Assembly: GCA_963795085.1 (NCBI GenBank)
Contig: CAWCFX010000001.1
Coordinates: 160,001 to 224,000, forward strand
Direction: 5' to 3'
DNA length: 64,000 nucleotides
Source: an uncultured Gemmatimonadales bacterium
GTDB taxonomy: Bacteria > Gemmatimonadota > Gemmatimonadetes > Gemmatimonadales > GWC2-71-9
How positions within the stretch are numbered: position 1 is the first letter of the stretch; the number at the start of each line of letters is the position of its first letter. Shown here piece after piece: positions 3,001-33,000 of this stretch. A program made the position numbers.

Positions 3001-6000
3001 CGACTGGCCGAGCTGGACCGCGCCGCGCTGGGAGCGGCGCTCGAGGACCTGGATGCCGATGGCTGGTTGATCTACGATTTTCACGGACTCAACCCGGTGG
3101 CCGGGAGGATCCTGGGGCTTGGCGGGATGGGAACCCGGCGGCTCTTCGCGTGGCTGCCTCGGGAAGGCGACCTCGTGGCGGTGGCGCACAAGATCGAACT
3201 CCAGCCGCTGGAACACTTTCCTGGCCGGGTTATACCCTATGCTACCCACCAGGAGCTTCACGCCGCCTTGCGGGACATCGTCGGGGGCAGGACCGCCGCC
3301 ATGGAGATCTCGCCTGATGACGCGGTCCCCTATCTTGACCGGGTCCCCTACGGGGTCGTCGGATTGCTGACCCGGCTGGGGGCCACGGTGATACCCTCGG
3401 ACGCGCTGGTGAGCCGCTTTGCGGCCGGATGGAGCCGGGCCGAGCTCGATGATCATCTCTTTGCGGCCGAGGTGCTGGCGTCGGTGGCGCGGGGCGCGCT
3501 GGAGGGAGCCGTGCACCGGGGCGGAACCGGGCTCCGGGAGGCCCAGCTGCAAGCCGAGGTCATCGGAGCCATGGAGGAGGGAGGGCTGGTGCTCGATTCC
3601 CTGCCGATCGTGGGGTTCGGGCCAAATTCGGCCAACCCGCACTACGAGCCGCACGCGGGGGCGGACCGGGAACTTGAGGAGGGGGATGTCATCCTCCTGG
3701 ACCTGTGGGCAGGCCGGGGCCGGAAGACGGTGTTCGCGGACCAGACCTGGATGGCCTATGCGGGCAGGTCGGTTCCCGACGATGTGGACCGGGTCTGGCG
3801 GACGGTCCGGGACGCGCGGGATGCGGCAATCACGCGGCTTCGGGATGGCCGGGCCCGGAACGAGCCGGTGGCGGGGTACCAGCTGGACCGGGCGGCGCGT
3901 AACCTGATCACGGAAGCGGGGTACGGGGAGTATTTCGTCCACCGGACCGGCCACTCGATTGATCGGGACCTTCACGGTTCCGGCCCGCATCTCGACGATT
4001 TCGAGACCCACGACGACCGCGAACTGGTGACGGGGGTAGGCTTTTCGGTGGAGCCGGGGGTCTATCTGCCCGGGCGGTTCGGAGTGAGGAGCGAGGTCAA
4101 CGTTTACAATGCGGCGGAGGGACCGCTGGTGACTCCATCGGCTCCCCAGCGCGACCTTATAATAATGAAGAGCTGAAGTCTTATCCTCCGGAAAGCGCTC
4201 CATTTCCGGATGGCGCGGGGGCGGGTGTGCATGACCCGATGGCACCTTCGTCCTAGGCGCGACATCGACAGATCCGTTACATCTTGCGTTGTTTCAGGGA
4301 GTTACGGACCGGTCGGTGAACCCAGGCTGAAACACGGTCTTCCTTGACATGCGATTTTGGGGGCTCCATATTGTCAGTCCGACCGGGCCGCGGTCGGAAA
4401 TCCAGGTTTCCAGTTAGTTGCCTCTCTTCTCTCCACATCGCAGGTCGCAGGGCCAACACGGGTGTCGCATTCCGTTCCCGGCGTCTCTTGCTGGGGCGCG
4501 TGTGCTTGCAGGCCGAAGGTTCGGCAGTAATTCTGTGTTCACGCCTTTGGAGGACGTCCACATGAAACAAAGCTGTGTCAGCGCCTTCGCACGCGTTGCG
4601 CGATTCGTCGCCATCGCGGCAGTGGCTCTGGGGTTCAGCGCGGGAGCGCTGTATGCCCAGGCGACTGGTAAGATCGAAGGCAGAGTGCGCGATCAGGCGG
4701 GAGCGCCGATCGCCAACGCCCAGGTCACCATCGTCGGCACCGCGTTTGGTGCCCTGACGAACAACCAGGGATACTACTTCTTCAACAACGTGCCGGTAGG
4801 TACGGCCAGTGTTCGCGCGGCATTCGTGGGTTACAAGTCAGCTGAGGCGCAGGGTGTCCGCGTCCTGGCCGGCCAGACCGTGACCCAGGACATTCAGCTT
4901 GAGCAGACGCCGTTCCAGGTGGACGAGATCACCGTGACGGCGGCCGCCACCCCGCTGGTGCCGCGCGACGAGGTCACCACCCGTCAGCGGCTGCAGGGCG
5001 ATTACGTGGAAGCCCTGCCGGCGGACCGGATCAACAACGTCCTCGCGCTCCAGCCGGGCGTGGTGGCGAGTCCGGGCGGCGGCGCCCTTTCCATCCGCGG
5101 CGGCCGGACCGACCAGGCCGCGACCTACGTGGACGGCGTACCCACCACCCCGGGGTACCGGGGCACCGGGTTCCGGTCCTCGCTGCAGGGCGGCAACGGT
5201 GCCTCGATCGGCACCAATGCCTTTGAGCAGGCCTCGGTGACCACCGGCGCCTCCTCGGCCGAGTTCGGCAATGCCCAGTCCGGCATCATCAACATCGAGA
5301 CCCGGACCGGCGGCTCCACCCTGCGCGGCAACGTGCAGTACGAGACCGACGAGCCGTTCGGCGTCAGCCGGAGCCAGGGCTTCAACCGGGTCCAGGGCAG
5401 CGTTGGCGGCCCGACCGGCATCAGCAACCTGACGTTCTTCCTGTCCGGCGTGCTGGAAGGCCGGCAATCGCAGGGCGCCGGGTTTGACTCCGAGAAGTTC
5501 CCGGTCTTCATCCCGGTGGGTGTGGACACCACGGTGGCCGTGCCCAGCGTCGTCGGGAGTGCCACGGCGGATACCACCTTTGTCAATGTGCAGCAGTTCG
5601 CCATCGCGCGGGGAGACTGCGACACCTTCTCGAGCAGCAGCAACTCCGATATCGCCAACAATTACGGCTTTGACTGCCAGGGTGTCCGGTTCCCGGGCTC
5701 CGCGTCAACGGTCTATCAGACCACGGCCAAGCTGAACTACACCTTCGGCACGGGCAGCCGGATTTTCCTGGCCTGGCAGGGCAGCCGGAACCACGGCCGG
5801 AACGCGGGAGGGTTCAATAACCCGCAGAACATCTCCGGCTTCCGGATCAACAACAACAATGTCACCCTCGGGTGGACCCAGAACCTGAGCAAGTCGGCCG
5901 ACCGCGCCCTCGCGCTGGACGCCTACCTGTCCTACCAGACGGACCGCCAGGTCGGCAGCATCCTGACCCGGCAGGCCGAGCTGGATTCCCGCGATCCCTT

Positions 6001-30000: not shown

Positions 30001-33000
30001 CTGCAACTGGTCAGTGGCGACTACCTGACGACCGATTCACGACAGCGGGAATGGCCAGTTGGCTCGGTGCGCTTTACCAGGACCCTGGCTTCCGGTCCCG
30101 TCAGCCTGTTGACCGGATCGATCGGCTTTCGCCGCCGTGAAGGCAGCACCCTCCAGCCCGGCGCGGGCGGGAATGCCCGGACCGCGACCTTCTCAAAGTC
30201 GCTTACCCCGGAGATTCAACTGGGACTCAGAAACGGTATGGTCCTGCTGCTGGGCTACAATGCGAACAGCCAGCGGAACGAAACCAACGGCAATACCACC
30301 GAAACGAACCAGGATGACATTACGGGCACCTTTAGTTATGTCTTTCGCCTTCCCGGGAGCATCAGCCGCCTCCGGAAGCAGGTCAGCGCCTCGCTTTTTA
30401 CTATCTTTTCGACCGCGACAACCTGCCTGACCCGGGTCGAGATGGACAATTGCCAGGCCATCTCCGATACCCGAAGAACGGAGATCCGGGGAAGCCTGGA
30501 CACCGACCTGCTCAAGCTGATGCGGGGCGGGATCCAGTTCGGATATACCCTCAACGATGCGCGACACCTGAACCGCCGGATTTCACAGATCTACCTCGCG
30601 ATCACCGCGCAACTGTCCCTGTACGCCGGAGACTACCGTTAGTACAGGCGCCGGGCGACGACGAGCCAGGGGTGAAAAAAGTGGGAGGTGAGAGGTGAGA
30701 AGTAATCCTGATTGGTGTCTGTTGGTTTTGGAGGCCCTCATATGCGATTCCTGATCGGTGCCATGCGTCTGTCCTGGCTCCTGCTTCCCAGTGCAATCCT
30801 CACGTTCAGTTGCGCCGGCGATAGGCCGGCGGTGAGCGAGTTCGACGGTCCGGCGGCGTTTCGCTACATCGAGCAGCAGGTGGCGTTTGGACCGCGGATC
30901 CCGGGCACCGAGGGCCACGAGCGGATGGGGAACTGGCTGGATTCCACGCTGCGGGCCAGGGCTGACACGGTCGTGGTTCAGGAATGGACCCACGTTTCGC
31001 TCCAGGGGGACAGCCTCCGGATGCGCAATTTCATCGCCCGCTGGAAACCGGCCGTGGCGAAGCGGGTGCTCTACCTGGCTCACTGGGACACCCGTCCCGC
31101 CTCGGGTCCCGATTCCGCCCTGGACTACACCCGGCCCGTCCCCGGCGCCAACGATGGCGGATCCGGAGTCGCCGTGCTGCTCGGCGTGGCCGACCGGCTC
31201 AAAGCTCAGCCGCCGGGGGTCGGGGTGGACCTCCTCTTCGTGGACGGCGAAGACTACGGAATCTTCAACGACAGCGTGGATGTGCTCATCGGATCCACCT
31301 ACTACGCCAGGAACCTGGCCGACAGCGAGCGGCCGCTCTTCGCCGTGCTGTTCGACATGGTCGCGGACAAGGACCTCCGGATTTTCGTGGAAGGAAACTC
31401 CAGCGTCGCGGCGCCCCAGGTGGTGGACCGGGTGTGGACGGCCGCCGAGGCGCTGGGGTACACGTCCTGGTTCGACCGGCGGGCCAGGCACACCCTGATG
31501 GATGACCACATTCCACTGCAGCGTGCCGGCATCAGCGCCATCGACGTCGTGGATTTCGACTACCCGCACTGGCACACGCCGGGGGATACCATCGACAAGG
31601 TGAGCGCGGAGAGCCTCAAGATCGTGGGCGATGTCGCGGTGGCGGTCATCAGGGGAGTAAGAGGGGAATGAAAGGTGAGAAGCTAGAGGGCTCTCGCGGT
31701 TTTTTGCGTGCGGCTGCGGGTTTGCGATGACGCCGGCTTGACGGTCTAACCCTATACTCCCGCCATGTCGGCCGAGCGGCGGGCCATCCTCCTTCTGCTT
31801 GCCCTGGCGGTCGCGGGGCAGGGCATCCGATACCTGGTGACCCGGCCCGGTGCGGCTCCGGGCGACGTCACCATCCTTGGCACAACCACGGATCGCTCGC
31901 CGTCGCGCCAGGCCCGGGTCGCGGAGGCGGCGCACCGGCCGCTGGCGCCGGGAGAGAAGATCGACGCCGACCGGGCTTCCCCGCCGGAGTTGGCCCGGTT
32001 GCCCCGGGTCGGGCTTTCGCTGGCCCGCCGGATCGTGGCCGACCGGGACAGCAATGGCCCCTTTGGCTCGATCGAGGGGCTGGACCGGGTGCCCGGGGTG
32101 GGGCCTGGCCTGCTTCGGGAGATCGGTCCCCGGGTGTCATTCTCCGGTTCACCGGCCCGCCCCGCCCCTTCGGCAGGCAGCCTCGTGAATCTCAATTCGG
32201 CGCCCGCCACCGAATTGGAACGCCTCCCCCTGATCGGGCCCTCGAAAGCCCTGGCCATCGTGACCTGGCGTGAGCGGCACGGTTCTTTCAAGTCCCTCGA
32301 CGATCTTGTTCTGGTTCCGGGAGTTAGCCGCCGGATGGCCGAGGCAATCCGCGACCGGGTGGCGTTTTGAGGGGGAGGGCCGGATTGGGGGCCAGTCAGG
32401 GACCCACTGACCCGCCGGCCCATCCCAATCGCCGGCCCTCGGCCACTATTGCCGCCATCTCCCCTGACCCCTACTATTGTGTGGTGTAAACCCTTGTCAT
32501 TCTTCATTCTCCGGACAATTCGCGACCATGGCAACCGCAGCAGCCGGCACTGATCGGCTCGGCGATATCCTTATCCGTGAGAACCTGATTACGCGGGAAC
32601 AACTCGCGCAGGCGCTGACGGAGCAGAAGGCCACGGGCTTCCGGCTGGGATACGTCCTCGTGAAGCTGGGACTGGTGCAGGAGATCGAAGTTACCAAGGT
32701 GCTGGCCCGCCAGTACCGGATGCCGGCGGTGGACCTGTCCCGCTTCGAGGTGGATCCCAAGATCGTCAAGCTGATCCCCGGCGACTTTGCCTCCAAGCAC
32801 GTGGTGCTGCCCCTCAAGCGGGAGGGCCGGACCCTGACCGTCGCGATGGCGGAGCCCACCAACTCCGGCCTGATCGAAGACCTGAAGTTCATCACCCGCT
32901 ACGACCTGTTCCCCGTCATCGCCGGCGAATACACCCTCCGCGCGCTGATCGAGAAACACTACGAGTCGGGAGACCAGCAGCTGCAGACGCTGCTCAAGGA

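Follow-up and report, generated by a model that had tools for sequence, protein, structure and literature searches.

Nutrient-capture units are known from Bacteroidota, and the locus described here resembles in its proposed working the SusC/SusD or SusC/surface-glycan-binding-protein pair of that phylum; unlike the lipoprotein partner of Bacteroidota, its surface partner would be a type IX secretion system (T9SS) cargo, tethered by a private PorV/PorQ-like barrel. The locus lies in a 64,000-nucleotide stretch of an uncultured Gemmatimonadales bacterium, referred to as the window. We give about even chances to the reading in which its giant protein, F0, is a T9SS-exported, barrel-tethered surface partner of the TonB-dependent importer F1—an analogue of SusC/SusD, not a homologue. 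The relevant features of the window, each with its evidence in brackets, are:

4562..7885, + strand, F1, TonB-dependent-transporter-like outer-membrane protein, 1107 aa from ATG 4562 (Pfam, profile against PDB)
7944..11969, + strand, F0, giant protein, 1341 aa, with a T9SS C-terminal domain (CTD) at its end (ORF translation, half models)
8088..9566, + strand, galactose-mutarotase-like beta-supersandwich with insertions, F0 residues ~49-541 (VIA-align wide search)
9567..10298, + strand, Fn3-like domain with a long insertion, F0 residues ~542-785 (VIA-align, conserved motifs)
10299..11657, + strand, mostly beta region, confidently folded, F0 residues ~786-1238 (half model)
11658..11969, + strand, T9SS CTD, F0 residues ~1239-1341 (VIA-align, Foldseek, TIGR04183)
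11652..13150, no strand, ~1.5-kb stretch spanning the CTD-coding end of F0, the spacer and the whole F2 gene (99.8-100% identity to the copy on contig C4)
12021..13151, + strand, F2, PorV/PorQ-family outer-membrane barrel, 376 aa, signal peptide (NF033709)
13258..14685, + strand, F3, GWxTD-domain protein, 475 aa, signal peptide (TIGR04514, Pfam)
14813..15883, + strand, F4, predicted lipoprotein, ~356 aa from M62 of ORF 14630-15883 (alignment A7)
24469..30642, + strand, SprA/Sov-family outer-membrane translocon, 2057 aa (TIGR04189, Pfam)

The five-gene unit and its giant protein

Five co-directional genes form one unit (window 4562-15883) in the conserved order TonB-dependent transporter, giant, PorV-like barrel, GWxTD protein and lipoprotein, F0 and F2 being the middle. 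With 66 F0-holding loci as the reference, many of them cut by contig ends, F1 was present in 62 (upstream of F0), F2 in 57, F3 in 51 (after F2) and F4 in 44. The order is kept in three loci (L053, L057 and L060) despite differing surroundings, no exception to it was seen among 80 metagenome loci, and the window copy is the member conserved throughout the phylum. Adjacency of F1 and F0 is not obligatory, since the second set in the genome is split, with F0'-F2' on contig C4 and F1'-F3' on contig C1. The initial annotation had missed F0-F2 as an operon core, with the transporter upstream and the GWxTD protein and lipoprotein downstream.

Concerning the partners, F1 (ORF 4418-7885) consists of a signal peptide, a carboxypeptidase-regulatory-like N-terminal domain (Pfam CarboxypepD_reg, 75.1 bits), a plug (Pfam Plug, 37.8 bits) and a large barrel. 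NCBIfam TonB-receptor and SusC/RagA matches are weak, every one below cut-off, and among PDB sequences the F1 profile finds PfeA (E 3.7e-17) as well as Cir, FrpB, PhuR and N-terminal domains of SusC homologues; as far as sequence tells, F1 is a TonB-dependent transporter. F3 is recognized by TIGR04514 (94.4 bits, cut-off 28) and Pfam GWxTD_dom (49.6 bits), with no relatives found among PDB sequences, and is not tied to the T9SS, because GWxTD proteins are present in 9/19 SprA-negative genomes of the phylum sample. In the alignment of F4 (A7), which starts at M62, an L-x-S-C lipobox is conserved, the C-terminal domain being weakly PPC-like (Pfam PPC, 23.7 bits, below the cut-off of 25.9).

The giant itself, 1336 aa long if started at the ATG at 7959, is a beta-rich, secreted protein with a signal peptide and no Pfam family; it has 936 homologues at E<=1e-3 (762 representatives in the library at 50% identity), the named ones all from Gemmatimonadota. 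Folded as two halves with alignments, it yielded pLDDT values of 92.1 and 93.7, superseding the poor earlier model (pLDDT 49.7). The supersandwich is matched by VIA-align to the N-domains of the dextran dextrinase 9ju0 (Z 18.6, rmsd 3.4, 253 residues aligned) and the glucoamylase 1lf6 (Z 18.6, rmsd 2.7, 230 aligned), and further to N-domains of GH94, GH65 and GH116 enzymes, aldose epimerases and YidC P1; Foldseek matches were weak (TM about 0.2). The Fn3-like domain aligns with 3mpc_B (VIA-align Z 10.9, rmsd 3.0, 93 residues, model range 507-750), and its GYRIYRG and YFY.VTAFD motifs are conserved (alignment A1). Residues ~786-1238, conserved across the paralogous cassette proteins, found no structural match, as the highest-ranking fold-search alignments all covered the CTD alone.

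The F1-F0-F2 triad is a cassette that other classes of the phylum have in multiple copies: all 12 regions taken from eight genomes of these classes carry co-directional F1-like, F0-like and F2-like genes, and each genome holds 4-19 PorV-family genes and 4-26 F0-type CTDs. In the cassettes, the F0-like proteins are homologous to F0 over their full length (hhalign probability 100%, E 1.2e-64, 846 columns). Compared across 11 cassettes, the F1, F0 and F2 identity matrices show correlations of r 0.92-0.98, attained by 0/2000 permutations (Mantel) and inflated by shared descent. Among 24 neighbour proteins of the cassettes, five fall into glycoside-hydrolase-type families (GH28; three with Melibiase; one with DUF6259/GHL6), one further protein has a GH123 match below cut-off, four are sugar oxidoreductase- or isomerase-like, and there is one each of an acetyl-xylan-esterase-like protein, a sodium:solute symporter and a ROK protein; the regulators are three sigma-54 response regulators and one histidine kinase with Reg_prop repeats.

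The fold, the invariant gene triad and the glycoside-hydrolase neighbourhoods of the paralogous triads suggest that the N-terminal supersandwich would bind a ligand (most likely a glycan) or act on it, and that F1 would then take the ligand up, powered by TonB. The ligand could, however, be a peptide or something else, given that the supersandwich is also known in non-sugar contexts, such as YidC P1 (Z 12), and that no glycoside hydrolases were found beside either copy in the window's genome, the neighbours there being M24 peptidases, regulators, an MsbA-like exporter and an amino-acid permease.

Translocon, sortase and motor

SprA is recognized by TIGR04189 (516.6 bits, cut-off 200) and Pfam SprA_N (52.7 bits), and PorX by NF052313 (532.1 bits, C6:674940-676481). 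The initial annotation had listed both, together with two PorV/PorQ-family barrels and two CTD-bearing giants, and the ORFs and model scores agree with it. The surroundings of PorX are an LPS-type glycosyltransferase/MsbA cluster, not T9SS genes. The models of GldM (E<=10), GldL (E<=0.1) and GldN (E<=1) had zero matches in the window's genome, as had been claimed before, and the GldK model just partial ones (41.5 and 38.1 bits; one FGE-type ORF beside msrB); neither the GldLM motor nor the GldKN ring was detected.

The phylum sample covers 101 genomes, none of them known to hold GldKLMN, with 82 from the window's class (families f1-f8) and 19 from other classes (f9-f11). SprA was found in 82/101 (81 over cut-off) and GldM in 0/101 at E<=0.01, which extends the earlier counts of 69/81 and 0/81, and GldL was found nowhere in this sample. 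PorU was present in 19/19 genomes of f9-f11, with 480-636 bits in 18 of them, and these 19 PorU-positive genomes gave no GldL and no GldM. In the window's class, PorU was found in 0/82 genomes at E<=1e-30, and in the window's genome matches to the PorU and PorZ models are confined to the CTD; by these profile searches, the sortase PorU is absent from the window's lineage. The PorU scores answer the earlier doubt whether the NCBIfam T9SS models reach this phylum: they do. A diverged motor may be present and have escaped detection, because no genome known to hold GldKLMN was among those searched.

In a six-frame genome search, TIGR04183 matched the two giants (25.8 and 26 bits, above cut-off) and nothing besides, and our own CTD profile recovered the same three proteins as before, i.e. 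the two giants and a 143-aa ORF at C2:343444-343875 (E 3.7e-5). Judged by the two TIGR04183 matches, this genome has a tiny cargo set, one of the two options previously proposed. Across the sample, the F0 profile matched 53/101 genomes, the CTD profile 50/101 and TIGR04183 49/101, each with 0/19 in SprA-negative genomes; among the 82 SprA-positive genomes the F0 profile thus matched 53 and the CTD profile 50, these co-occurrence counts being inflated by shared descent. F0 is missing from 29/82 SprA-positive genomes, family f2 having it in just 3/24 as weak CTD-only matches; SprA being the more widespread of the two, its retention is not explained by F0.

The C-terminal domain and its barrel

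The CTD of F0 most resembles those of PorZ and PorU, which are retained, VIA-align giving PorZ 5m11 (Z 12.9, rmsd 1.6, 89 residues aligned, 22% identity), PorU 6za2 (Z 9.2), the mirolase CTD (Z 8.3) and the NucA CTD in 8glk (Z 7.9), and Foldseek 8glk_D (TMt 0.73). In the protein scan, PorZ (30.5), Por_Secre_tail (19.1, cut-off 23), PorU (14.2) and CHU_C (21.5, cut-off 27) all met the C-terminus only.

F2 scores 137.1 bits with NF033709 (PorV_fam, cut-off 90) and stays below cut-off with the PorQ (66.3) and PorV (43.9) models; its profile finds F. johnsoniae PorV 6h3i_F among PDB sequences (E 3.2e-8). The complex predicted for the CTD with F2 reached ipSAE 0.84 in three runs, the best of three controls 0.00, with at least 91% of contacts shared and a partner pLDDT of at least 77; PorV-CTD complexes have already been solved, so this pass may mirror likeness to them. 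The ipSAE mark was attained by 116/157 solved complexes and 2/215 mismatched pairs, counts that apply here just approximately, because our own alignments were used. F2 is, on this model, probably the cell-surface anchor of F0 via its CTD.

The second pair, F0'-F2', lies at C4:685514-690793, and BLASTN aligns the two loci over 5105 nt at 92.5% identity, close to the 5099 nt and 92.8% first reported. The nearly invariant ~1.5-kb stretch listed above contrasts with the remainder of this 5.1-kb duplication (8052-11651; 83-94% per 400-nt block); at the protein level F2 and F2' are identical (376/376) and F0 and F0' share 91.2%. In principle, the 100% identity of this segment might stem from the assembly, but both copies sit within long contigs.

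The initial reading of the giant and barrel as a porU-porV pair fails, as NF033707 covers the CTD alone (14-17.6 bits), the PorU and PorZ structures align with the CTD only, and the confident half models reveal a beta-supersandwich of sugar-enzyme type, an Fn3-like domain and the CTD, with no peptidase fold seen in either.

Proposed working of the unit

F0 would pass the inner membrane by Sec, in keeping with its signal peptide, and the outer membrane presumably via SprA with the CTD as signal, a route suggested by the CTD fold and the co-occurrence with SprA. Because the window's class is without the PorU sortase, the CTD would stay uncut and, as the predicted interface suggests, docked in the cognate F2, encoded directly behind, so that F0 would be held at the cell surface beside F1. 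The conserved set of importer, giant and barrel looks like Gemmatimonadota's own version of the nutrient-capture units of Bacteroidota.

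The transporter gene and its constant neighbours

The genes concerned follow one another on the forward strand of the window (C1:160001-224000), the G+C content of which is about 66%, and sprA lies some distance behind them.

Features of the window in gene order (window positions)
4562-7885, + strand, ATG start: F1, TonB-dependent-transporter-like protein (translation and profile models)
7944-11969, + strand: F0, the giant protein of 1,341 aa
12021-13151, + strand: F2, barrel protein of the PorV/PorQ family
13258-14685, + strand: F3, GWxTD-domain protein
14813-15883, + strand: F4, lipoprotein, start fixed by alignment
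beyond F4, convergent: MsbA-like ABC exporter
between the exporter and sprA: CtaA-CtaB fusion, then amino-acid permease, then lptG and lptF
24469-30642, + strand: sprA, divergent from lptF
downstream of sprA: M28 peptidase, ComEA-like gene, pilB-pilT-pilC

The first protein, F1, begins with a domain of the CarboxypepD_reg type followed by a plug (Pfam Plug, 37.8 bits; cut-off 23.9). Its profile matches, among the PDB sequences, PfeA (E = 3.7e-17; plug and start of the barrel), FrpB and PhuR (barrel segments) and Cir, and it also matches the N-terminal domains of SusC homologues. On its plug and the matches over the barrel, F1 belongs to the TonB-dependent transporters, and its build—N-terminal domain, plug and barrel within about 1,100 aa—is like that of SusC. 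Membership in the SusC/RagA subfamily itself was rejected, since TIGR04056 matches nothing but the N-terminal end and gives 39.2 bits there, far short of its cut-off of 368.25. Signal peptides are present on F0, F1, F2 and F3.

The gene order F1-F0-F2-F3-F4 is constant among the loci holding F0. Against 66 such loci (64 public ones from Gemmatimonadota and two of this genome, many of them truncated by contig ends), F1 was found in 62, F2 in 57, F3 in 51 and F4 in 44, and three of the loci (L053, L057 and L060) retain the order amid otherwise unrelated surroundings. The same order was seen without exception in 80 metagenome loci; the metagenome scan, made with an alignment of distant F0 members, returned high-GC loci only. 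The genome contains exactly one close second copy of each of F0, F1, F2 and F3; this second set is split, the giant and barrel copies (F0' and F2') being located on contig C4 and the copies of the transporter and the GWxTD protein (F1' and F3') at C1:232230-237318 (L163:4231-9316), 8 kb past the end of the window. F1' shares 86% amino acid identity with F1 and is directly followed by F3' (55% identity to F3), the giant and the barrel being absent there. Regulators are present among the neighbours of the second copies, an OmpR-type response regulator lying upstream of F1' on C1. No CAZymes were found near the window's own unit or near the second copies in this genome, so that the ligand of the conserved member may not be a glycan.

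Peptidase genes are frequent in the window (2959-4176, 36766-38100, 42607-43914, 30712-31671 and 49095-50816), comprising three of the M24 type, one of the M28 type and one PD40/DPP-IV-type propeller. The M24 gene at 2959-4176 is positioned directly upstream of F1 and co-directional with it in 40 loci, which bears on the question whether the ligand of the unit is a peptide. A scan for promoters and terminators gave counts of sites no higher than in shuffled sequences; the one sigma-70-like site upstream of F1 (4344-4372) carries no evidential weight. Two further ORFs of the window may be mentioned here. The one at 17879-19894 on the reverse strand is a single ORF of 671 aa combining a COX15/CtaA domain (heme a synthase type) with a CtaB heme o synthase domain (347.9 bits) and, as judged from these domains, looks like a fused gene of the heme a pathway. 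The other (50984-51538, forward strand, 184 aa) matches positions 872-1020 of the 1021 of the AcrB/ACR_tran model only; it may be what is left of an RND transporter gene, or such a gene with a wrongly called start.

The giant protein and its barrel

The giant F0 was folded in two halves with alignments of 77-79 members of its family, and both models are confident (pLDDT 92.1 with pTM 0.92, and pLDDT 93.7 with pTM 0.89). The poor model obtained for the initial annotation, which is superseded by these, can therefore be ascribed to a technical limit. In the predicted models, VIA-align places a galactose-mutarotase-like beta-supersandwich at residues of about 49-541, the best matches being the N-domains of dextran dextrinase (9ju0; Z 18.6, rmsd 3.4, 253 residues aligned) and, at an equal Z of 18.6, of glucoamylase (1lf6; rmsd 2.7, 230 residues aligned), followed by the N-domains of GH94, GH65 and GH116 enzymes, aldose epimerases and YidC P1. 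An Fn3-like domain (Z 10.9) covers residues of about 542-785, and the region of about 1239-1341 is a T9SS C-terminal domain (CTD), with the CTD of PorZ as the top structure (Z 12.9, rmsd 1.6 over 89 residues, 22% identity) before those of PorU (Z 9.2), mirolase (Z 8.3) and NucA in the SprA-PorV-substrate complex (Z 7.9). Residues 786-1238 are folded confidently and yielded no match of their own in the fold searches, since the CTD occupied the match lists; this is not to be taken as evidence of a new fold. With Foldseek both models gave only weak matches (TM about 0.2), the convincing ones being CTD-sized.

At the level of sequence, too, the tail is the part of F0 that is recognized. No Pfam family was found in F0 apart from a tail match (CHU_C, 21.5 bits), the Por_Secre_tail, PorZ and PorU models give 19.1, 30.5 and 14.2 bits on the same tail, and the F0 profile finds among the PDB sequences the PorZ CTD alone (E = 0.058), the CTD being of the type-A/PorZ kind. 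The F0 family counts 762 representatives at 50% identity, without a Pfam model. The named homologues, also when the search is started from the most distant member, all come from Gemmatimonadota/Gemmatimonadales, which marks the genome as one of Gemmatimonadales, the identity being 54-70% across the order. Look-alike clusters without Pfam families in the ESM Atlas bear the labels Gemmatimonadota, Ignavibacteriota (two members with a phylum label) and Fidelibacterota (one member), which is a lead only. In the related genome G050, the usual place near sprA (C5:275720-279662) is occupied by a fragmented F0 copy in several frames, with four in-frame TGA codons in one match, and an intact copy is found on another contig; the former may represent decay of one paralogue.

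The giant had been read in the initial annotation as a PorU-like partner in a porU-porV pair, a claim that is rejected here: the PorU model NF033707 aligns with its profile positions 987-1076 (CTD) only, at 14.2-17.6 bits, and VIA-align superimposes PorU (6za2) on model residues 460-564 alone, the N-terminal half being the supersandwich with the Fn3-like domain and residues 786-1238 having been searched only as part of the C-terminal half. SusD was likewise discarded as an identity of F0, because no helical, TPR-like SusD/RagB fold and no SusD/RagB Pfam family was detected and the models are mostly beta; the likeness of F0 to SusD is thus one of role, not of descent.

A six-frame search of the genome with TIGR04183 gave 25.8 and 26 bits on the two giants (cut-off 23) and nothing else above the cut-off. 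To these our own CTD profile added a 143-aa ORF on contig C2 (E = 3.7e-5), so that the set of CTD proteins is the one previously reported. This ORF (C2:343444-343875; L165:5445-5873) has nothing but a CTD-like domain behind its signal peptide and lies between a RecO/SelB-type ORF and clpB.

Concerning the barrel, F2 scores 137.1 bits with the PorV-family model NF033709 (cut-off 90), remains below the cut-offs of all equivalog models (PorQ 66.3, the best, PorV2 44.5 and PorV 43.9 bits), and its profile matches the solved PorV 6h3i_F (E = 3.2e-8). On these sequence matches it can be assigned to the PorV/PorQ family. A third barrel resembling the family (C6:327547-328329) is weak (39 bits, full model length) and probably represents the orthologue of the weak PorV-family matches seen in genomes lacking SprA.

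Docking of the CTD in the barrel was modelled with residues 29-376 of F2 and the last 97 residues of F0, in three runs and with three controls. The predicted interface reached an ipSAE of 0.84 in all three runs, the best control giving 0.00, with a contact agreement of at least 91% and a partner pLDDT of at least 77; the mark applied is reached by 116 of 157 solved complexes and by 2 of 215 mismatched pairs, counts that are only approximate here, as our own alignments were used. It should be pointed out that PorV-CTD complexes have already been solved and that the passing score may reflect likeness to them. The duplication offers an independent hint of a link between CTD and barrel. The second giant-plus-barrel pair is indeed present on C4, and the repeat of about 5.1 kb was recovered as 5,105 nt at 92.5% identity (BLASTN). 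The two copies are 99.8-100% identical over 11652-13150, a stretch that runs from the CTD-coding end of F0 through the spacer and the whole of F2, and 83-94% identical over the preceding 3.6 kb of F0; at the protein level, F2 and F2' do not differ at any of their 376 positions, the identity of F0 and F0' being 91.2%. The identical stretch looks like gene conversion of the CTD and the barrel as a unit; an assembly artefact would be the less likely cause, given that each copy is situated well within a long contig.

Secretion genes and related cassettes across the phylum

The single SprA of the genome reaches 516.6 bits with TIGR04189 (cut-off 200), and PorX, encoded on C6, reaches 532.1 bits; the scores of SprA, the PorV family, PorX and the giant tails reported earlier were all reproduced. 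The PorX gene, within the stretch C6:672123-677592 (L162), is co-directional with an MsbA-like ABC exporter and glycosyltransferases and adjoins a GT9 heptosyltransferase, its setting being an LPS or glycolipid context and not a T9SS one. Across 101 genomes sampled from the phylum—including one unpublished genome, G078, the removal of which shifts each positive count by at most one—SprA was found in 82 (81 above the cut-off), the F0 profile in 53, the CTD profile in 50 and TIGR04183 in 49. None of the last three matched in any of the 19 SprA-negative genomes, and 29 genomes have SprA but lack F0, family f2 of the window's class standing out among them. The PorV family is above its cut-off in 80 of the 101 genomes, as compared with 81 for SprA. 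GWxTD proteins were detected in 87, including 9 of the 19 that are SprA-negative; the family of F3 is thus not bound to the T9SS. The F3 profile matched nothing meaningful among the PDB sequences.

The surroundings of sprA are conserved. In the window (21764-36696) and in 11 of 12 further genomes fetched (L166-L177; families f1, f2, f4 and f7) the gene is divergent to one of the lptF/lptG type, and in the window and 9 of those 11 genomes pilB-pilT-pilC stand co-directionally behind it, often after an M28 peptidase; the genes of the twelfth locus (L176, GC 0.53) are poorly called. The idea that SprA substitutes for a secretin of the adjoining pilus genes was dropped, two secretin genes being present elsewhere in the genome.

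The two parts of the phylum sample differ in their T9SS content. The window's class (families f1-f8) has 1-5 PorV-family genes per genome versus 4-19 in the families f9-f11 of other classes. With NF033707, each of the 19 genomes of f9-f11 has one clear PorU, 18 of them above the cut-off of 420 (480-636 bits) and the remaining one with a split gene; at E<=1e-30, none of the 82 f1-f8 genomes has one. In the present genome, the PorU model and the PorZ model NF052228 match the two CTDs only (17.6 and 34.9 bits), and PorP/SprF (TIGR03519) gave no match. The true porU-porV pairs of f9-f11 encode a PorU of 1320-1370 aa, with the PorV gene directly behind at the loci examined, and TIGR04183 finds from 13 to at least 51 matches per genome in these 19 genomes. 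As to what trails these pairs (L196-L202), the next gene encodes a conserved protein of 310-340 aa and of no family; in f9, a TPR + GWxTD protein of 772-791 aa follows a few kb further on, and in f10 and f11 an NHL-repeat protein, a protein of about 1,070 aa with a faint likeness to SprA (18.9 bits) and a BamA/POTRA-type protein are found. They may be additional T9SS-associated genes of this phylum.

The same sister classes contain relatives of the window's unit. Twelve places with a PorV-family gene, taken from eight f9-f11 genomes, all showed a co-directional triad of F1-like (about 1,030-1,150 aa), F0-like (CTD protein of 990-1,190 aa) and F2-like genes. One of them, L188, also possesses F3 and a full-length F0 and looks therefore like the unit orthologous to that of the window. 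The F0-like proteins of the 11 paralogous cassettes, in which no Pfam family apart from CTD matches was found, are homologues of F0 over its full length (hhalign probability 100%, E = 1.2e-64, 846 columns, 25% identity), and the PorU-bearing genomes hold 4-26 copies of F0 homologues beside PorU. The identity matrices of the three proteins over the 11 cassettes correlate with r of 0.92-0.98, a value inflated by shared descent and reached by none of 2,000 permutations, which indicates that the triad has been duplicated and inherited as a unit, contact between the proteins not being proven thereby.

Among the 24 neighbouring genes scanned, five encode families of the glycoside-hydrolase type (one GH28, three Melibiase, two of which are also GH31-like, and one DUF6259/GHL6) and a further one has a GH123 match below the cut-off. 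There are also four GFO/IDH/MocA or xylose-isomerase-like proteins, an acetyl-xylan-esterase-like hydrolase, a sodium:solute symporter, a ROK protein, three sigma-54 response regulators and a histidine kinase carrying Reg_prop repeats; the remaining genes are unrelated or unassigned. The neighbourhoods of the sister-class cassettes are thus of the polysaccharide-utilisation type.

With regard to the motor and ring, none of the searched genomes is known to encode GldKLMN. It is in this setting, with no positive control, that GldM (TIGR03517) matched nothing, whether in this genome (E<=10) or in any of the 101 genomes (E<=0.01), that GldL (TIGR03513) gave none in this genome (E<=0.1), none above the cut-off in 31 relatives and none in the 19 f9-f11 genomes (E<=0.01), and that GldN gave none at E<=1 in this genome. 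GldK has two partial matches of about 40 bits here (top 41.5; cut-off 350), on an FGE-type ORF beside msrB, and in f9-f11 partial matches to its FGE part of at most 112 bits. The initial annotation had arrived at the same outcome for this genome, and its observation that SprA occurs in the phylum without detectable GldM now stands at 82 versus 0 of 101 genomes.

A complete T9SS may nevertheless exist, with GldL and GldM (and GldK and GldN) too diverged or non-homologously replaced for the curated models. This has to be regarded as a serious alternative, if somewhat short of an even chance, given the composition of the search set. T9SS transport in Bacteroidota is described, in the part of the literature consulted, as requiring the proton-motive force through GldLM, and the families f9-f11, with SprA, PorU, PorV and their many type-A CTD proteins, bear a full secretion load that should need energy. 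Against it, four other models built on Bacteroidota perform strongly in the phylum (SprA up to 1251, PorU 480-636, PorV family up to 200 and PorX 532 bits); that these recover their targets and the motor and ring models do not makes true absence or replacement more credible than could be claimed before. Nor was a hidden motor seen at the places inspected: the msrB locus with the sole GldK-like ORF has no gldLMN-like neighbours, PorX is accompanied by LPS-type glycosyltransferases and the MsbA-like exporter, SprA in the 12 other genomes by lptF/G, M28 peptidase and pilB-pilT-pilC, and the only three MotA/ExbB-family loci of the genome look like Ton, Tol and Mot. Of the frame of a "reduced T9SS" proposed earlier, the presence of the parts thus stands and the question of the motor is strengthened, the analogy with PorU being given up.

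A putative uptake unit, its alternatives and its known counterparts

The finding is better seen as a conserved unit—a TonB-dependent transporter with a probable T9SS-cargo partner and a predicted private PorV-like anchor—composed of known kinds of parts. As for its working, F0 would be exported through SprA and, as no sortase is found in this class, would keep its CTD docked in F2, by which it would be displayed beside F1; its supersandwich would then capture or process a ligand that F1 imports. The unit may be SusC/SusD- or SusC/SGBP-like by role and, by descent, a PorZ-PorQ-type anchoring pair joined to a TonB-dependent transporter, a reading that appears to us about evenly poised between right and wrong, the lack of CAZymes near the window's own copies weighing against it. 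More tentatively, and possible rather than probable, the SprA-based T9SS of Gemmatimonadota would, without a GldLM motor and a GldKN ring, build an undescribed uptake unit of transporter, all-beta T9SS partner and private barrel, i.e. a SusD-less and lipoprotein-free counterpart of a polysaccharide utilization locus (PUL), its founding member, conserved throughout the phylum, being the one in the window.

It seems rather unlikely, in comparison, that F0 acts on its own as a surface or secreted protein (an adhesin, part of a surface layer or a polysaccharide-active enzyme) that leaves the cell through SprA and is anchored in F2, with co-regulation and no physical or functional pairing behind the linkage to F1. 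The CTD and F2 speak for such a protein as much as for a transporter partner, the supersandwich is typical of sugar-active enzymes, the identity of F0 across the order would suit an enzyme or a structural protein, and this genome has F0'-F2' without F1 and F1'-F3' without F0. However, all 12 sister-class cassettes keep the three genes together and co-directional, the three co-diverge closely, and the supersandwich has neither an (alpha/alpha)6 nor a TIM catalytic domain beside it.

Export of F0 by F1 instead of SprA, the latter having another purpose, is considered highly improbable. The CarboxypepD_reg domain, plug and large barrel of F1 correspond to the build of Oar, a TonB-dependent transporter on which Myxococcus reportedly relies for protease secretion, almost every locus has F1 next to F0, the T9SS motor was not found (with no positive control), and SprA stands always by lptF/G, mostly by pilB-pilT-pilC and not by T9SS genes; yet F0, its CTD type and TIGR04183 occur in none of the 19 SprA-negative versus about 50 of the 82 SprA-positive genomes, and the CTD fold with a PorV-family partner is a hallmark of SprA-dependent cargo. 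Least probable of all is a PorU- or PorU/PorZ-like giant that processes or attaches cargo within a reduced attachment complex: despite the shared order of a large CTD protein before a PorV-family barrel, a size (1341 aa) close to that of PorU, a CTD nearest those of PorZ and PorU, and the f9 GWxTD protein behind porU-porV as F3 is behind F2, the model that recognizes real PorU so strongly touches only the CTD of F0, PorU (6za2) and PorZ (5m11) align to the CTD alone, a sortase would have no substrates with only two or three CTD proteins in the genome, and PorU genomes have F0 homologues in addition to PorU, so that the peptidase part of this explanation is largely refuted.

Returning to the unit as a transporter with an anchored surface partner, its nearest counterparts are the PorZ-PorQ and PorU-PorV pairs of the T9SS attachment complex of Porphyromonas gingivalis, large T9SS-exported surface proteins that keep their CTD and are held by barrels of the PorV/PorQ family. 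The CTD of F0 is nearest to those of PorZ and PorU, PorQ is the best equivalog of F2, and a CTD-barrel interface is predicted. The differences are that neither the beta-propellers of PorZ nor the C25-type peptidase of PorU was detected in F0 (residues 786-1238 being unmatched), that the pair shares its operon with a TonB-dependent transporter and belongs to a kind of barrel present 4-19 times per genome in the sister classes, and that this genome has no sortase and almost no other cargo. With the SusC/SusD and SGBP systems of Bacteroidota PULs, the unit has in common a transporter of about 1,100 aa with a carboxypeptidase-regulatory-like N-terminus, an adjoining surface partner (here a predicted one) and, in the sister classes, many paralogous cassettes in each genome, accompanied by glycoside hydrolases, genes of sugar metabolism and sensor-regulators, Reg_prop kinases included. 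It departs from them in that F0 is all-beta, of no Pfam family and not SusD-like, being a CTD protein with its own predicted anchor barrel and not a lipoprotein, in that F1 scores far below the cut-off of the SusC/RagA model, and in that the window copy lacks CAZyme neighbours. SprB-SprF of Flavobacterium johnsoniae, where a type-B CTD cargo has a dedicated partner of the PorP/SprF family, is comparable in the pairing of a single cargo with an outer-membrane partner gene beside it, although the partner here is of the PorV/PorQ family and the CTD of the type-A/PorZ kind. The canonical T9SS of Bacteroidota shares SprA, a PorV-family barrel and CTD cargo with this genome, and with the sister classes also PorU and dozens of type-A CTD proteins; it differs in that GldL, GldM and GldN were undetected in the phylum sample, GldK giving generic FGE matches only, and PorU, PorZ and PorP in this genome.

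In the literature, Gemmatimonadetes are merely listed, in the introduction of a review, among the phyla where T9SS "may also be present" (PMC11285876), and TXSScan omitted the phylum for having too few genomes, according to the part consulted (PMC4793230); the parts consulted of PMC11205867 and PMC12505986 added nothing specific. In titles and the beginnings of abstracts on T9SS, PULs or TonB in Gemmatimonadota, no description of the F1/F0/F2 cassettes was found, and the term GWxTD was absent from the literature searched.

Should the proposed reading be true, T9SS surface display and TonB-dependent glycan import, both studied mainly in Bacteroidota, would be joined in one cassette of another phylum, providing a second way to set a substrate-binding partner atop an outer-membrane importer. 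It would give a function to a large conserved family without a Pfam model and explain why Gemmatimonadota have so many PorV-family paralogues (as many as 19 in one genome), and it would sharpen the question whether SprA works without the GldLM motor. The phylum comprises both lineages with SprA, PorU, PorV and dozens of CTD cargo proteins, in which GldL and GldM went undetected, and the reduced lineage of the window with one or two such cargo proteins, the latter offering a simple test system.
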